Origin: Minisyncoccota bacterium
GTDB taxonomy: Bacteria; Patescibacteriota; Minisyncoccia; RBG-13-40-8-A
Reading direction: 5' to 3'
DNA length: 64,000 nucleotides
Assembly (NCBI GenBank): GCA_035528175.1
Contig: DATKZC010000025.1
Coordinates: forward strand, 431-64,430
In this document: positions 27,757-33,626 of the stretch, one piece after another
Numbering within the stretch: position 1 is the stretch's first letter
Layout of the letters: every line of letters begins with the position of its first letter
Program-made: the position numbers and the translations under genes
The notes under the pieces: generated by a model
What the model saw: only the letters and a program-made list of their open reading frames with translations
Told to the model about the DNA's origin: nothing
Databases searched by the model: none

Positions 27757-30255
27757 TTTCCCATGACACTTCTTATATTTCTTACCTGAACCGCACGGAC
27801 AGGGATCGTTGCGGCCAATATGTTTTGTTTGTTGGCTACCTTGCTGGCGTTGCGGGCGGGTTAATTCTACTTTCAACAACATCTCAACAATCGCATTATC
27901 AATTTCTTCCAGCATGTGCTTGAATAAACGATGACCTTCGTTTTTATATTCAACCAATGGGTCGCGCTGTCCATAGGCGCGCAAACGCACGCTCTCGCGT
28001 AAACATTCCATTGTTTCCAAGTGTTCCATCCAAAGCATATCAATTGAACGTAATGATACAAATTTTTCCAATCCCGCTCTCTCATTTTCAGGAACATCCC
28101 CGCCCAAACCTTCGGATTGTGGCGGGCCTGCCTGTTTGCGCTCCGCGCTTACGGCGGATTTCTCAAATTTATTACAATATTGCTTATACTCGTCTTCTGT
28201 CATTAATTCCTTAATTTTTTGATGCATCTCTTTATCTGTTGCTTCGAATAAAATTTCTTTTCTCATTTTATAAATCGTTTCCCTGTGCTTATTCATCACC
28301 TCGTCATATTCCAAAACATGATTCCTAATATCAAAATTATATCCTTCAATTTTTGCCTGCGCTTTTTCAATCGCCGATGAAATCATTTTATTTTCAATCG
28401 GCTGATCCTCGGGAATTTTTAAAGCATCCATCAGGGTTTTAATCCTCTCTGAACCGAATCTCTGCATCAATTCATCTTCCAATGAAACAAAAAATTCGGT
28501 AGAACCAGGATCGCCTTGCCTACCGGATCTTCCTCTTAATTGATTGTCAATTCTTCTTGCTTCATGGCGTTCAGTACCAAGAACATGAAGCCCTCCGGAT
28601 TCACAAACTCTTCGACTCTGTTCGGGGTCTTGGGGATTACCTCCCAAAACAATATCAACTCCACGACCTGCCATGTTGGTTGCAACCGTCACGGCTCCTA
28701 ATCTTCCTGCCTGGGCAATAATCGCGCCTTCCCCCTCGTGCTGTTTAGCATTTAAAATTTCGCATTGTATTCCCTCTATTTTTAAGAGCATTCCCAAGTA
28801 CTCGTTTTTTTCAATAGAAATCGTGCCTATCAAAACTGGCTGGCCTTTTTTATGGCGTTCTTTTATTTCCTGAACAATCGCTTTAAATTTCCCCTGCTCG
28901 GTTTTGTAAATCTTGTCTGGCAAATCTTTCCTAATCATCGGCTTATTAGTCGGCACAACTATAGTGTCCAACTTATAAACCTTATCAAACTCTTCAGCAT
29001 TGGTTAATGCAGTTCCTGTCATTCCAGCTAATTTGTTATACATCCTAAAAAGATTCTGGAAAGTAATTGTTGCCAAAGTTTTCGATTCCTTCTGCACTTG
29101 TACATTTTCTTTTGCTTCCAATGCCTGATGCAACCCGCCGGAATAACGCCTGCCAGGCATCAGCCTGCCGGTGAATTCATCAACAATAATTACTTCCCCA
29201 TTTTTAACTACATAATCTTTATCTCTTTTGAATAAAACTTCTGCGCGTAAAGCTTGCTCCAAATGATGCACTAATTGGATTCCGGCTTCATCATAAATAT
29301 TCCCAACTCCCAAAACTTTTTCCACTTTATCCATACCCTCATTAGTTAAAGTAGCTGCGCGCATTTTTTCATCAATTTTAAAATCAATATCCCTTTTTAA
29401 TTGCGAAGCGATTTTGGAAAATTTCTTGTAAAGCTGGGCTGATTCCACATCCGGAGCGGAAATAATCAAAGGAGTTCTGGCTTCATCTATTAGAATACTA
29501 TCTACTTCATCAACAATTGCATAATTAAAAACTCTTTGCGCCATATTATCCTTATCATAAGCCATATTGTCCCGCAAATAATCAAATCCGAATTCATTAT
29601 TTGTTCCATATAAAATATCACAATTATAAGATTCTTTTCTCGAGATCGGTTTTAAAAAATCATCAATTACCTTAAATCCGCCCAATTTATCACGTTCCTC
29701 GTCTAATTTTAATTCCGGCTTGCCCGCCGAAGCCTTGGCAAAGGCGGGATCGTAAATATAAGAAGTTTCATGGTTTATACATCCAACGCTCAATCCAAGA
29801 AAATTATATATTTGCCCCATCCACACTGCATCTCTCCTTGCCAAATAATCATTAACTGTGATTAAATGCGCTCCTTTGCCTTCCAAGGCGTTTAAATATA
29901 ATGGCAGGGTTGCAGACAAGGTTTTGCCTTCTCCTGTTTTCATTTCAGCAATCATTCCTTGGTGTAAAATTATTCCGCCCATAAGCTGAACATCAAAATG
30001 CCTTTGATTTAATGTTCTCTTGGCTGCTTCTCTAATTAAGGCAAATGCTTCTGGCAAAATATCATCCAAGGTCTCTGACCTTGCCCCGAGCGCAGTCGAG
30101 GGGTTTAATCTATTCTTAAATTCAGAAGTTTTTTGTTTTAATTCCTCATTTGAAATAAGCTCGAATTGAGATTCAAGCTTATTTATTTCATCAACAATCA
30201 ACTGGATTTTATTCAAATACCTTTTATTCGGGTCTCCGAATAATTTCTCAAACAT
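27754..30255 (-). CDS. secA: Preprotein translocase ATPase SecA
   Basis: DEAD-like motor motifs ([37 protein letters not shown]) and a C-terminal zinc finger [14 protein letters not shown]. Confidence 0.9.
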
Positions 30256-30256
30256 T

Positions 30257-32044
30257 TTATAATGTCGTTTTATCTTCTCCTTTTGGATACCAGTCCAATT
30301 CTGATTTGTTAATTATAAATATTGATTCCGGTTTTCCGCCTTGAGATAGAAAGTTCTCGCCGGTTATGTTTAACCAACTTAAAATTCCTGTATCCTCGCC
30401 GGATATTTCCAGTTTATAAACTTTGTCTTCGCTTACGTACCTATAATAATTAGATGTCTTGAACGCGTCTCTTACTTCCGGACTAACGGTTTTAACTGCT
30501 TTCCATCCGCCAGTCAAATGGCCGTACATATTAAAGATAGCAGGATTAAGAAATAATCTTTTGTAGCCATATTGGCTAATGATGAAAATATCAAAATCAC
30601 CAACTGCCCTGATTAAATCTCCTTCTTTTAATCCAAAATCTTCTGGCTTGGGCAATTCTTCTCCAGGTGGCTCAACCGGCTCATCAAAAAGATCCGTAAA
30701 TGCGGAAAGAATAAAAGGATTTGTCGGTTCATTGTTTTGAAAATCGCTTTTCTTAAATTGATTAGAGATAGCAATCGTAACTGAATCAACTCTTGTTTTG
30801 AAATCAGGTATTTTCAGGATTCCGCTTTGATTTTCTAAGGTTAATTTTCCAACCACTGTCTGCTGATCTATATAATCAACAATATAATAAACATTAAAAT
30901 CACCCTGTCCCATAAAACCTTCAAACTCAATTTCCAAATCTTTAGCAATAGTGCTTGCATCCTGTTTATTAACAAAACGATACCAATATGGCGACCAATC
31001 TTTTACCTGCTGCGCAATATTAATTACGTTTGCTGATACGATGCTGTAAGTAATTGGTGAAATCTGGACATTTCCTTTCAAATACGGATTTTTGTAGCCG
31101 TATATGCCGCTATAAATTGATTTGTCATTCAGATAATTAGCAATTGCCCAATTATTAAATATCTGAGAAAAAGTAGAACTATATCCTTTTTCTCTTAACG
31201 CCTGTTCAATGCTGTAGATTCCAACTTTATTGTTTTTTATCATTAAAGAAAAAATATCTTCTCCGAACTGCTCAGCCAGATAATGGCCCAAAAGATTCAC
31301 TGATGGATAATCATACCTGTCGCCTTTCCACTCGGTCAGAGAATCTGATGGTTGAAAAAGAAAATCTTCAACGCGCCTTTCTAAGTTGCTTCCTACGTAA
31401 TCGCTATCCAATCCAGCTACTGTTGAAGCGTATTCACTCCTTAATTCATTAAGCCAAATATCTTCTTGGACATTATTAAGTCTTTGTTTTTGATTCCAAT
31501 TAATCATATGCTGCAATTCATGAGCAATCAAACCGTGAACTAAACTAGTGCCAACCTGGCTGACATTAATATAAATCATTTCTCTGTTATTGGAAGTGGG
31601 TTCCTGTAAGCTGGCGACTTCATCTCTTTCATTAAAATATCCTCCTGCTGTCTTTTTTAACTGTGTGAGGAGAATTGTAATTCTTTCATCGTTATCAATT
31701 CCAGGATTCCATTCCGAGCCAAAAATATATCTCAAAGAAGGATATGTTTTCTCATTAAATTGGACAGCAATGTCATCTAGTCCATCAAGAAAAGAACCTT
31801 GCTGGACCAAAGACAATTCTTGCCAAAATGGATCTTCAACATAAAAATAAGCATTAGCAGAAACCTTTTGCAAGGTAGCTGCTATTTTTGTTCTTGTTTC
31901 ATAATCAAAAGATGAATCAACAAAAAATTCACTGCTATCGCCGACTTCAAAAACAGCAAAAACAGAACAACTGCAAATAATAAAAATCCCGCCTGAAACC
32001 AGCAGGATTGATAAAAATTTATTTTTTCTTAAAAGGGAAATCAT
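30257..32044 (-). CDS. Secreted putative zinc metalloprotease (HExxH) with a C-terminal beta-rich domain
   Basis: Start moved to the internal M ([23 protein letters not shown] signal anchor). [14 protein letters not shown] HExxH motif. The track's 75-codon N-terminal extension runs through a GC-rich structured intergenic region and was rejected. Confidence 0.45.
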
Positions 32045-32317
32045 AAAAATTTTGCGTTGCCAAAGGAGCCGGGAAAGTAAAACCCCAATACTTGGTATTA
32101 AATGGGTACTAGTTCCCGGACTCCTCAAGCAACACAATCTATAGTTTAAGTATAGCTGATACGAATAATGTGTGTCAAACCCCTCGACTTCGCTCGGGGT
32201 AAAAAGAAAAACGTCGACTAAAAGCCAGACGTTTTTCCCCAAGTATAGAGTTTTCCCTTGCGGGATCACCCATTCAACTGTTTATATACTAGCAGGTAAA
32301 AAATTCGTTGTCAAGCA

Positions 32318-33046
32318 CTAGTAAGAAAATTCGGCGTCTATGATAATATCCTTGTCAAATTCCTGACATCCAAGAGCGAAAATTTTAAACATTGGAGAGA
32401 TATCGGCTCCGTCTAAAAATTCCAGAGATTTGTTTTCGCTGAGTTTCAGTTCAATCAAAACCTCAAATTCCAAAAATGTTTCTCTGTCATAAGGATAAAT
32501 ATCACCCAAAGGATAATCAGAGAGTTCTATGAGCATATATTCTGTACCACCTAATTTTATTTCCTGCTCATAACCGTTCACCACTAAAGTCATTTTAGAG
32601 ACATATGATTTTTCCAAAGCATAAACCTTGTCTTCTCTGATGCTTAATTTATCGCTAAAAAAATATAACCAAAGTTTACGGATATCTAAAATTGTATTAA
32701 CGGGATTTTTAATTTTGTATTTACCTAAACTAATAGTATTAGATTCGCCATTTTTAGATATTGCCCAAATTTTATCTGGTTCTTTTGTTGTTGTCGGCTC
32801 AATGGTTGCCGGGCTTGCGCAGCCATATTTGGAGAAATCCGTAATTACTTCAGAGCGCCTAAGATTATCTTTAAGAGAAATTGGTTTTGGCTTATATTCT
32901 TCCGAAGTTGAATTATTTGGTGGATTTGGGTCGTCTCCTGGTTTCTGATAATCAAGATAGATGAAAATTACTGCAACAACTACAGCTAAAATAACGGGCG
33001 CAATTATAGCCCAGTTGATTTTTTTGCTTTTATTTGTATCTTCCAT
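32318..33046 (-). CDS. Membrane-anchored extracytoplasmic protein of unknown function
   Basis: N-terminal TM, a Pro-rich linker (DDPNPPNNSTSEEYKPKP) and a beta-rich domain. Confidence 0.35.
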   Translation of the reverse strand: MEDTNKSKKINWAIIAPVILAVVVAVIFIYLDYQKPGDDPNPPNNSTSEEYKPKPISLKDNLRRSEVITDFSKYGCASPATIEPTTTKEPDKIWAISKNGESNTISLGKYKIKNPVNTILDIRKLWLYFFSDKLSIREDKVYALEKSYVSKMTLVVNGYEQEIKLGGTEYMLIELSDYPLGDIYPYDRETFLEFEVLIELKLSENKSLEFLDGADISPMFKIFALGCQEFDKDIIIDAEFSY

Positions 33047-33059
33047 GTTTTATATTTAA

Positions 33060-33626
33060 TTACTTAATCTGAAAATTTCCCGCAATCTGATGAAACAAAT
33101 TTTTGTATTCATCCCAACTTTCTTTAAGCGTATTGAATGAGATTATCCAGACATCCTTATCCTTAATGTTTACAGCCAATAAAACTTTAAAGTCAATATC
33201 CTGCTGAATAATGTCTGCCTCCATAAAATAAATTGGTTCGCCATCCATATTTTTGTCTTCTTCCTTTGATATTTTTACTTCTGGAAAATTTCCCTTTAAA
33301 GAAGTTTCTATTTTCTCCAGATAGTCATTATCGGTTTTTTCATTAAAAGTATCGTAAACAACAGAGTAATAACTCCTAAAACCTATTTTCGCAGCATCTG
33401 CATTATTAATCTGTTCCTTGTTATTCATCGCTGTTGCAAAAGAACCCATCACAGCTTCTACTTCAACCCACCCCCCTGGTAATTGAATAACAAAACCATC
33501 TTTATTTATTTCGGTTTGTGCGTTTTGCTCTGGCGACGTCTTTTTAAAAATAAAAAAATAAGCCAGAACCAACCCTGCCAATATGATAAATAATATCCCT
33601 AGAATAATTAATGTTTTTTTATTCAT
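33060..33626 (-). CDS. Membrane-anchored extracytoplasmic protein of unknown function
   Basis: N-terminal TM (LIILGILFIILAGLVLAYFFIF) and a 160-aa soluble domain. Confidence 0.35.
   Translation of the reverse strand: MNKKTLIILGILFIILAGLVLAYFFIFKKTSPEQNAQTEINKDGFVIQLPGGWVEVEAVMGSFATAMNNKEQINNADAAKIGFRSYYSVVYDTFNEKTDNDYLEKIETSLKGNFPEVKISKEEDKNMDGEPIYFMEADIIQQDIDFKVLLAVNIKDKDVWIISFNTLKESWDEYKNLFHQIAGNFQIK

Follow-up and report, generated by a model that had tools for sequence, protein, structure and literature searches.

CopA/CopT of plasmid R1 and RNAI/RNAII of ColE1 are plasmid antisense control RNAs that form a four-way junction with a target hairpin; the pT181 RNAI/II-repC leader, pIP501 RNAIII and pAMbeta1 exemplify antisense-RNA-mediated transcription attenuation, and SroC-GcvB is an example of a small RNA (sRNA) 'sponge' pair. 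Patescibacteria (candidate phyla radiation, CPR) have tiny genomes and are mostly uncultured, and a full-text literature search found no paper on their small RNAs, on RNA-based regulation in the group or on an RNA pair such as the one described here. The subject of this work is a 273-nt spacer (positions 32045–32317) in a 64,000-nt stretch of Patescibacterium DNA (the window; contig DATKZC010000025.1, GC content ∼34%), located between the minus-strand genes for a 242-aa protein and a 595-aa secreted HExxH protein. Sequence comparison reveals that the spacer contains two conserved units, that each unit folds with covariation, and that the intermolecular helices between the two units co-evolve. 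The spacer probably encodes an antisense sRNA (A) and a structured target RNA (B), which would regulate the fate of B-containing transcripts. The principle of an antisense small RNA paired with a structured target is known. What is new is the tandem encoding on the same strand, the two seeds in crossed order, the predicted migrating four-way junction and the occurrence in Patescibacteria, together with a small RNA that seems to have been co-opted as the leader of an operon.

The spacer folds stably on the minus strand, with a minimum free energy (MFE) of −90.9 kcal/mol (z = −5.8, 0/200 shuffles as good), compared with −78.1 kcal/mol (z = −4.4) on the plus strand. Along the minus strand in the 5′-to-3′ direction, the 242-aa gene ends in its stop codon (TAG, 32320–32318) and is followed by promoter P1, a short RNA with a hairpin and U-run (32240–32201), a hairpin at 32200–32179, promoter P2 (32178–32149), a long hairpin (32137–32052), AAUUUUU and the ATG of the HExxH gene at 32044. 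An original prediction, made from the letters alone, described this region as far more GC-rich than its surroundings and as carrying four strong hairpins. The first point is overstated, as GC content is only moderately raised (0.39–0.42, versus 0.29–0.39 nearby). The second holds in part: stable structure is present where it was placed and the first and fourth hairpins are real and conserved, but the second is unsupported and the third is a variable insert. Where the prediction listed the structures as one plus-strand RNA, the evidence points to two minus-strand transcription units, and in the relatives that carry them both units are conserved, with covarying stems. A fifth, small GNRA hairpin (32271–32248), both promoters and the co-evolving pairing between the units had been missed.

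The upstream unit, A, is preceded by promoter P1 (32286–32314, minus strand), composed of TTGACA (32314–32309), a 17-nt spacer and an extended −10 element, TGc-TAGTAT (32294–32286). A consensus scan scores this sigma-70-type promoter at 10/12 plus TG. In all relatives read, TTGACA and TGCTAnnAT stand at a constant distance from the RNA 5′ end, and in every relative the promoter lies past the 242-aa stop codon, 7–8 nt upstream of the first seed. With a predicted start at G32278 or A32279, A would be an RNA of ∼78 nt (32201–32278, minus strand) with a 5′ seed, a GNRA hairpin, a second seed and, at its end, an intrinsic terminator. The only credible match to covariance model R2 in the window, at 32201–32278, reaches 95.9 bits; the MFE of A is −28.1 kcal/mol (z = −5.0), and RNAalifold finds 21 pairs, eight of them with compensatory changes.

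Specifically, seed 1 (GUUGAAUGGGUG, 32267–32278) opens the RNA, and its first 7 nt, GUUGAAU, are unpaired in the predicted free A. The hairpin of A (32248–32271) reads GGGU GA UCCC-GCAA-GGGA AA ACUC with a GNRA loop; its stem pairs covary (GC/CG, CG/UA), the length of its insert varies (L002; L numbers denote the loci compared), its base is GGG:CUC, and its outer pairs (GGGU:ACUC) compete with those made in trans with B. Seed 2 (ACUCUAUACUUGG, 32239–32251) includes a linker, UAUACUU, which is likewise unpaired in the predicted free A. The terminator (32201–32240), GGGGAAAAACGUC-U-GGC...GUC-GACGUUUUUC plus a U-run, has ∼15 pairs closing a 5–6-nt loop followed by UUUUUCUUUUU, as expected of an intrinsic terminator. 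It contains an exact 10-nt inverted repeat and its stem covaries (e.g. CG/GC 11:7, GC/AU 13:6); a simple terminator scanner missed it, since that scanner models loops of at most 8 nt without inner pairs. This is the fourth hairpin of the original prediction, a 15-pair stem with a U-run and covarying pairs, which was rightly called terminator-like but belongs to A and not only to the upstream 242-aa gene, from which it may also stop read-through. A small open reading frame (ORF) in A (AUG at 32273) was considered and set aside, as its AUG is not conserved and is lost in relatives. At the sequence level, A thus has its own promoter and its own terminator outside any conserved ORF, as trans-encoded sRNAs do.

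The downstream unit, B, is preceded by promoter P2 (32149–32178, minus strand), composed of TTGACA (32178–32173), an 18-nt spacer and TATACT (32154–32149), which scores 11/12 in the same scan. Relatives keep the P2 TTGACA and TATACTTAA; one of them is L002, with its gene between A and B. The second hairpin of the original prediction overlaps the −10 box and start region of this promoter, and its arms are not conserved in relatives. B (32045–32142, minus strand) has a predicted start near 32142 and consists of a ∼25-bp hairpin (stem 32137–32052), then AAUUUUU, then the ATG. The hairpin includes a bulged U and an internal loop; its inner stem has 4 bp (ACCC:GGGU), and its apical loop, 18 nt long, is conserved. 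The first hairpin of the original prediction (GGAG[U]CCGGGAA...UUCCCGGCUCC) is real and forms part of this longer hairpin, in which 15 of the 26 consensus pairs show compensatory changes. The inner stem fits best in the register ACCC:GGGU, in which no cell is broken and L008 (ACCU:AGGU) shows one double change. B has an MFE of −45.2 kcal/mol (z = −7.1). Exactly one B in the window is found by covariance model R1, at 105.8 bits on the minus strand versus 36.9 bits on the plus strand; further matches of the A and B models in the window are weak, lie inside ORFs and were dismissed as chance. The segments of B that A would target, 32108–32097 (UACCCAUUUAAU) and 32095–32083 (CCAAGUAUUGGGG), together span 32083–32108.

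We compared 80 metagenome loci encoding relatives of the 595-aa protein, six loci found by exact protein look-up, and eight species-representative genomes matching a pattern derived from the core of the long hairpin. Both A and B occur at about 25 loci of related Patescibacteria; essentially all relatives at ≥56% protein identity have the two units upstream of the gene. The B DNA of L002 nearly matches that of the window, at a protein identity of only 69%. The two units of L002 are kept apart by a 178-aa gene that has its own terminator, an organisation shared by the complete chromosome OZ246412.1 (L087). A and B thus count as distinct units with one promoter apiece. The gap from B to the ATG is only 8–20 nt in most close relatives and includes neither a promoter nor a Shine–Dalgarno sequence; in the L006 subclade, a U-tract follows B and the next gene has a separate TGnTATAAT box. 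No B pattern was found in viral contigs.

A repeat search of the window identified two inverted repeats that link the A and B units. The corresponding minus-strand RNA segments are positioned to form helix I, between A 32278–32267 and B 32108–32097 (12 pairs, 96.8% of cells paired, four pairs changed on both sides), and helix II, between A 32251–32239 and B 32095–32083 (13 pairs, 88.5% of cells paired, four pairs changed on both sides). When 18 distinct A+B pairs are aligned on conserved motifs, with essentially no gaps, 92.4% of cells of the 25 intermolecular pairs are paired, compared with 32–49% when the partner is slid by 1–3 columns. Furthermore, eight pairs (20 cells) are changed on both sides, compared with 0–2 when slid, and 0/500 shuffles reach any of these measures; the shuffled control ignores phylogeny, whereas the slid control keeps it. 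Many of the trans G-U pairs are valid only as minus-strand RNA. Examples of double changes in helix II are UA/AU (12:6) and GC/CG/UA (14:3:1). In particular, helix II pairs AUACUUGG of A with CCAAGUAU of B in the window, AUACUAGG with CCUAGUAU in L004, UACUACG with CGUAGUA in L006, ACUAUG with CAUAGU in L014 and AACUACG with CGUAGUU in L018, and helix I of L008 pairs GUUGAGUAGGG with ACCUACUCAAC. Complementarity to the target has thus been kept by compensatory evolution, as in trans-encoded base-pairing sRNAs.

Two other ways of measuring the pairing were abandoned. RNAduplex on full-length A and B was uninformative, returning spurious long duplexes, and was replaced by a two-helix measure; MAFFT alignment of the full concatenated A+B misaligned seed 2 between subclades, and was replaced by the motif-anchored mini-alignment. 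On the minus strand of L089, a truncated extra copy of the 5′ half of B, comprising the 5′ strand of the lower stem and both A-target segments, precedes the full B by ∼100 nt and is oriented like it. This copy might be a decoy for A.

The pair also occurs in distant lineages. The B model matches eight loci whose HExxH proteins are 35–44% identical to that of the window (L080, L055, L081, L030, L025, L067, L052 and L023). The architecture and a core consensus (AGYAC.CA..AA.AC..AG.AUUGG.GU..AAC) are common to these B′ elements. Every one of them has a TATAAT box of its own, and the next gene carries a separate TGnTATAAT box. The GC-rich lower stem of B′ is directly followed by UUUUU, so that B′ would be a self-terminating, stand-alone small RNA of ∼75 nt. 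An A-like partner (A′) with promoter, 5′ seed, hairpin, second seed and terminator lies nearby in six of these loci (L023, L052, L081, L055, L030 and L025), although in L055 it is arranged differently, with adjacent seeds and the hairpin after them. The A′ and B′ helix sequences are unrelated to those of the window, but complementarity is kept: AAGUGAGUG:CACUCACUU and CUAUUUGUU:AACAAAUAG in L023, GUACUAAGGG:CCCUUAGUAC and AAAACUC:GAGUUUU in L052, and AUUCUAAAGUC:GACUUUAGAAU in L025. Two-helix duplex energies are −24 to −37 kcal/mol for cognate partners versus about −8 to −23 kcal/mol for other-clade partners, and cognate z-scores against shuffled A are −2.8 to −6.6.

The position of B′ varies. 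It lies upstream of the HExxH gene in L023, between the HExxH gene and a murB-like gene in L081, L055 and L067, before another secreted-protein gene in L052, and on the opposite strand in L080, L030 and L025. Among the 61 distant-homologue loci searched, B′ falls within flanks of ≤2.5 kb of the HExxH gene in eight, far above the expectation for one random copy per ∼1-Mb genome, which indicates that the pair is linked to the neighbourhood and not to a fixed position. Covariance model R3, built on both clades, found no B-like RNA beyond those already described.

These comparisons suggest how the two RNAs might work together. The unpaired GUUGAAU at the 5′ end of A and UAUACUU in its linker would nucleate on the apical loop of B, and the helices would then extend by exchanging the inner stem of B (ACCC:GGGU) and the base of the A hairpin (GGGU:ACUC) for intermolecular pairs. 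Because both of these intramolecular stems are mutually exclusive with the trans pairs, the complex could grow from its toeholds by branch migration. As the 5′ segment of A pairs with the 5′ segment of B, and the 3′ segment of A with the 3′ segment of B, the two helices, the lower stem of B and the GNRA hairpin of A would meet in a four-way junction, the likely geometry of the A:B complex.

Since only 8–20 nt without a promoter or Shine–Dalgarno sequence separate B from the ATG, the mRNA of HExxH and secA, the gene that follows, must start at P2 and carry B. B would thus be both an sRNA-like hairpin and the 5′ leader or attenuator of this mRNA. The suggestion in the original prediction of a structured 5′ leader for the protease-like gene is accordingly plausible for the hairpin nearest the gene. 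The AAUUUUU after B resembles a leaky terminator, and binding of A may modulate termination or read-through at the B U-tract, RNase III-type cleavage or transcript stability, or ribosome access to the AUG that lacks a Shine–Dalgarno sequence. The regulatory outcome would probably fall on the HExxH-secA mRNA, as a tuning of this operon. In evolutionary terms, an originally free-standing small RNA B may have become an operon leader or attenuator in the subclade of the window, and where B′ is free-standing, A′ would act as an anti-sRNA of B′.

The predicted complex resembles CopA/CopT and RNAI/RNAII in that a small constitutive RNA would attack the apical loop of its target, with pairing spreading into the upper stem. 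Like CopA/CopT, it would have two intermolecular helices flanked by two intramolecular stems, with the target in the leader of the controlled gene. However, those antisense RNAs are made from the opposite strand and are fully complementary to their targets, whereas A is encoded in tandem on the same strand, 60–800 nt away, with complementarity in helices of 12 and 13 pairs, which sets it apart from cis-encoded antisense RNAs. Unlike CopA, A has two short seeds that must co-evolve with B, and it is located at a chromosomal locus rather than in a replicon control region. Compared with the CopA/CopT extended kissing complex, the junction would have the ends of A on its distal side, in a 'permuted' hairpin arrangement that would remove the threading problem.

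The arrangement is also reminiscent of pT181, pIP501 and pAMbeta1, where a small RNA that binds a nascent leader determines if transcription ends ahead of the gene, at a terminator hairpin with a U-tract. Those systems switch between anti-terminator and terminator folds; no alternative fold of the B lower stem was found, and the mechanism is only a candidate here. With trans-encoded sRNAs and sponge pairs, A shares its own promoter, a seed at the extreme 5′ end, a 3′ terminator and short, imperfect, co-evolving pairing; as in sponge pairs, a small RNA, B′, would serve as the target in distant lineages. Unlike trans-encoded sRNAs, A has one dedicated, adjacent and highly structured target, and its two seeds pair in crossed (pseudoknot-like) order. 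crRNA:tracrRNA, whose duplex is an RNase III substrate, likewise comprises two separately promoted small RNAs in a co-evolving duplex; it differs from A:B in forming one long duplex rather than two short helices around a junction, and no repeat array or cas gene is present in the loci read.

Several observations weigh against an antisense RNA and its target. The output step is the weakest part of the model: no alternative fold was found by which apical binding would open the lower stem, and pairing of A with the HExxH translation-initiation region is neither better than in shuffles nor conserved, the same being true of the B core. That A and B are discrete transcripts, with the starts and ends given above, is a prediction. 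The anchors of the trans alignment were chosen by us on conserved motifs, and its 18 sequences are related. The apical loop of B is more conserved than pairing alone requires and could contact a protein or another partner. At the homologous locus of two relatives with ∼60% protein identity, L092 and L093, A and B are absent (this locus only), indicating that the module is accessory or dispensable there. In L093 (2400–2520) this is a clean empty site, with the 242-aa homologue followed by a 40-nt spacer, containing an TGTATAAT box and an AAGG Shine–Dalgarno sequence, and then the gene; the empty site of L092 is at 1000–1135.

The excess conservation of the B loop would fit a different, unlikely role for the pair, in which A and B are two obligate halves of a previously undescribed bipartite structured RNA or ribonucleoprotein (RNP) of Parcubacteria-type Patescibacteria, the four-way-junction complex itself being functional rather than a regulator with its target. 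Such a complex might be a protein scaffold, a catalytic RNA or a guide RNA, possibly the core of an RNP, with mere linkage accounting for its place before the HExxH gene and, more generally, near envelope and secretion genes (HExxH protein, secA, murB). The pair is kept in distant lineages whatever gene follows B′, which is often self-terminating, and both RNAs have strong, apparently constitutive promoters. In addition, loop and internal-loop nucleotides of B (AGYAC..CA..AA.AC..AG.AUUGG.GU..AAC) are conserved beyond the needs of pairing, and A has a conserved GNRA loop and a conserved terminator loop. However, close relatives lack both RNAs at this locus (locus only), no conserved protein gene is associated with the pair, no known RNA family matches it, and the different arrangement of A′ in L055 speaks against a rigid shared architecture.

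It is quite improbable that the spacer is ordinary punctuation, consisting of a terminator, a promoter and a stabilising 5′ hairpin, with an A:B complementarity that is functionless and due to chance, low complexity or a relic of duplication. In favour of this, terminators, promoters and 5′ stem-loops are widespread, transcription of the 242-aa gene can also end at the A terminator, and the third hairpin is variable. This account is hard to reconcile with a promoter of A that is held past the stop codon and 7–8 nt from seed 1 in every relative, with trans helices whose compensatory double changes beat the slid and shuffled controls, and with complementarity that persists in unrelated sequences of distant lineages. 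A duplication relic is further contradicted by seed 1 of A, which pairs with loop nucleotides of B that the 3′ strand of B leaves unpaired.

The highly conserved apical and internal loops of B, the U-tract and ATG that follow it, and the second terminator-like hairpin early in the ORF (described below) would also suit a cis leader that senses a protein or small ligand, as a riboswitch-like or protein-binding attenuator, with A as an unrelated neighbour. We give this little credence: no Rfam riboswitch or leader family matches, several lineages do not have B′ upstream of a gene, some having it on the opposite strand or convergent, and the covariation with A would be left unexplained. Specifically, Rfam riboswitch and leader families gave only sub-threshold matches, Trp_leader (25.2 versus 41 bits) and ROSE_2 (24.5 versus 65 bits), both located over the intragenic hairpin and not over A or B.

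The original prediction had also considered a degenerate RNase P, 6S or signal recognition particle (SRP) RNA. Rfam 15, run on the whole window at gathering score and on the spacer at E ≤ 10, gave no relevant family, nor did Rfam on five related and two distant loci. The RNase P models RF00010 and RF00011 had no match in the window at gathering score and none in 31900–32450 at E ≤ 10, and the SRP (RF00169) and 6S (RF00013) models had no match. The transfer-messenger RNA (tmRNA) model RF00023, which the same Rfam check leaves below its gathering score, matched once, inside the ORF on the plus strand, with 8.6 bits where the threshold is 47, and ARAGORN found no tmRNA, only a distant tRNA-Gln. 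Superficially, the GGAG[U]CCGGG / CCCGGCUCC stem with its bulged U recalls the P4 helix of RNase P. P4 is a near-invariant helix with long-range CR-I/CR-V pairing in a multi-helix RNA of ∼330–400 nt, whereas the P4-like GGAG[U]CCGG stem covaries freely (CG/GC/UA, GC/AU) and is a simple local hairpin of a ∼95-nt RNA; the resemblance was rejected. It is therefore very improbable that the region is a diverged housekeeping RNA, be it RNase P, SRP/4.5S, 6S or a tmRNA in two pieces, and for the tested families this is essentially refuted, as B, although a ∼100-nt hairpin next to secA, also has no GNRA-capped SRP domain IV and the module is absent at this locus from L092 and L093.

Between the A terminator and P2 lies an ACCCC...GGGGU hairpin (32179–32200, minus strand), which is not part of the conserved module. 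The third hairpin of the original prediction therefore exists, but as a variable insert in only some relatives: it is present, with differing lengths, in the window and in L004, L005/17, L009, L011, L083, L084, L087, L089 and L094, and absent from L001, L006, L010, L012, L015, L018 and L091. These hairpins are inserted at one spot, between the A terminator and the B −35 box, and similar CCCCG...CGGGG hairpins are found elsewhere in distant loci. The hairpin is probably a back-up terminator or an insulator.

The genes around the spacer are all on the minus strand and encode, in order, a Wzy_C/TPR protein, a PsbP-like protein, the 242-aa protein, the 595-aa protein (after the spacer) and SecA. 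The 595-aa gene (30255–32044) encodes a protein whose sequence shows a signal peptide and whose HExxH motif is invariant. The protein belongs to a large family (548 database matches) that is conserved in Patescibacteria, with homologues labelled Patescibacteria group or Candidatus Portnoybacteria, and in which H175, E176 and H179 are invariant. It has no Pfam, NCBIfam or PDB-sequence match, and a TIG/IPT domain is present in some distant members. The label 'metalloprotease-like' is plausible but unproven. The start of secA overlaps the stop codon of the HExxH gene, which suggests translational coupling.

The true start codon of the HExxH protein is the ATG at 32042–32044 (minus strand), as indicated by homologue lengths, gene calls, the signal peptide and frame-breaking indels. 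It has no Shine–Dalgarno sequence and lies 8–10 nt past the B hairpin. A mechanical ORF from GTG 32269 would encode 670 aa and runs through the RNA region, as the original prediction correctly warned in calling this start an annotation trap. We rejected the extension: homologues are ∼595–605 aa long and start with the signal peptide at ATG 32044, gene calls of relatives begin at the equivalent ATG, and single-base indels upstream break the frame. The public gene call P0002 (665 aa, 90% identical to the window protein) made the same error. P0002, P0028 (684 aa) and P0067/P0068 (632–634 aa) extend 30–90 residues beyond the family norm, which is consistent with N-terminal mis-annotation through the RNA region.

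Within the HExxH ORF, a terminator-like hairpin (AAUCCUGCUG-GUUU-CAGGCGGGAUU) with a U-run is located at 31975–32009 (minus strand), over codons ∼12–23 in the region encoding the signal peptide. It uses GC-rich codons in a genome of 34% GC and is conserved at the nucleotide level. Its nine pairs are 89% paired, and three of them (six cells) show double changes, some synonymous and one with a Gly-to-Ser change. The hairpin is also present in L093, which is without A and B, and may be a translation-coupled attenuator or a pause site.

Further observations concern the neighbourhood. The 188-aa protein (33060–33626) matches Pfam PsbP, a photosystem-II-associated fold family, with E = 3.3e-07 in a non-photosynthetic host, and L001 and L002 keep it upstream. 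The gene that comes after the HExxH gene in distant lineages is not secA but a murB-like gene (NYTTFRIGG motif, by eye; L081 4395–5321, L055 5036–6007, L080 2231–3157 and L023 3099–4043), often with A′ and B′ in between; in L081, the murB-like ATG lies ∼7 nt after B′, as the HExxH ATG does after B in the window. Between A′ and B′, further conserved and apparently structured non-coding elements occur in L030 (4330–4860), L025 (4510–4700 and 4800–5000) and L055 (4650–4830). They have repeated '...UAAAGUUUCCAGGG.CUUUUGCUU' ends, 'CCAAGAAGGCAAGC...GGCCUGAUUGG' and long-range CCCGCACCAAUUUUG / CAAAAUUGGUGCGGG pairing, and none of them has an Rfam match.

This work corrects a recurrent gene-calling error, the N-terminal extension of the HExxH protein through the RNAs, and provides covariance models R1–R3 that are reusable across CPR genomes. 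The widely conserved, co-evolving small-RNA pair is absent from Rfam and would be among the first candidate sRNA/target systems in Patescibacteria. Located on the leader of a secA-containing operon, the module offers a testable handle on possible control of secretion and envelope genes.

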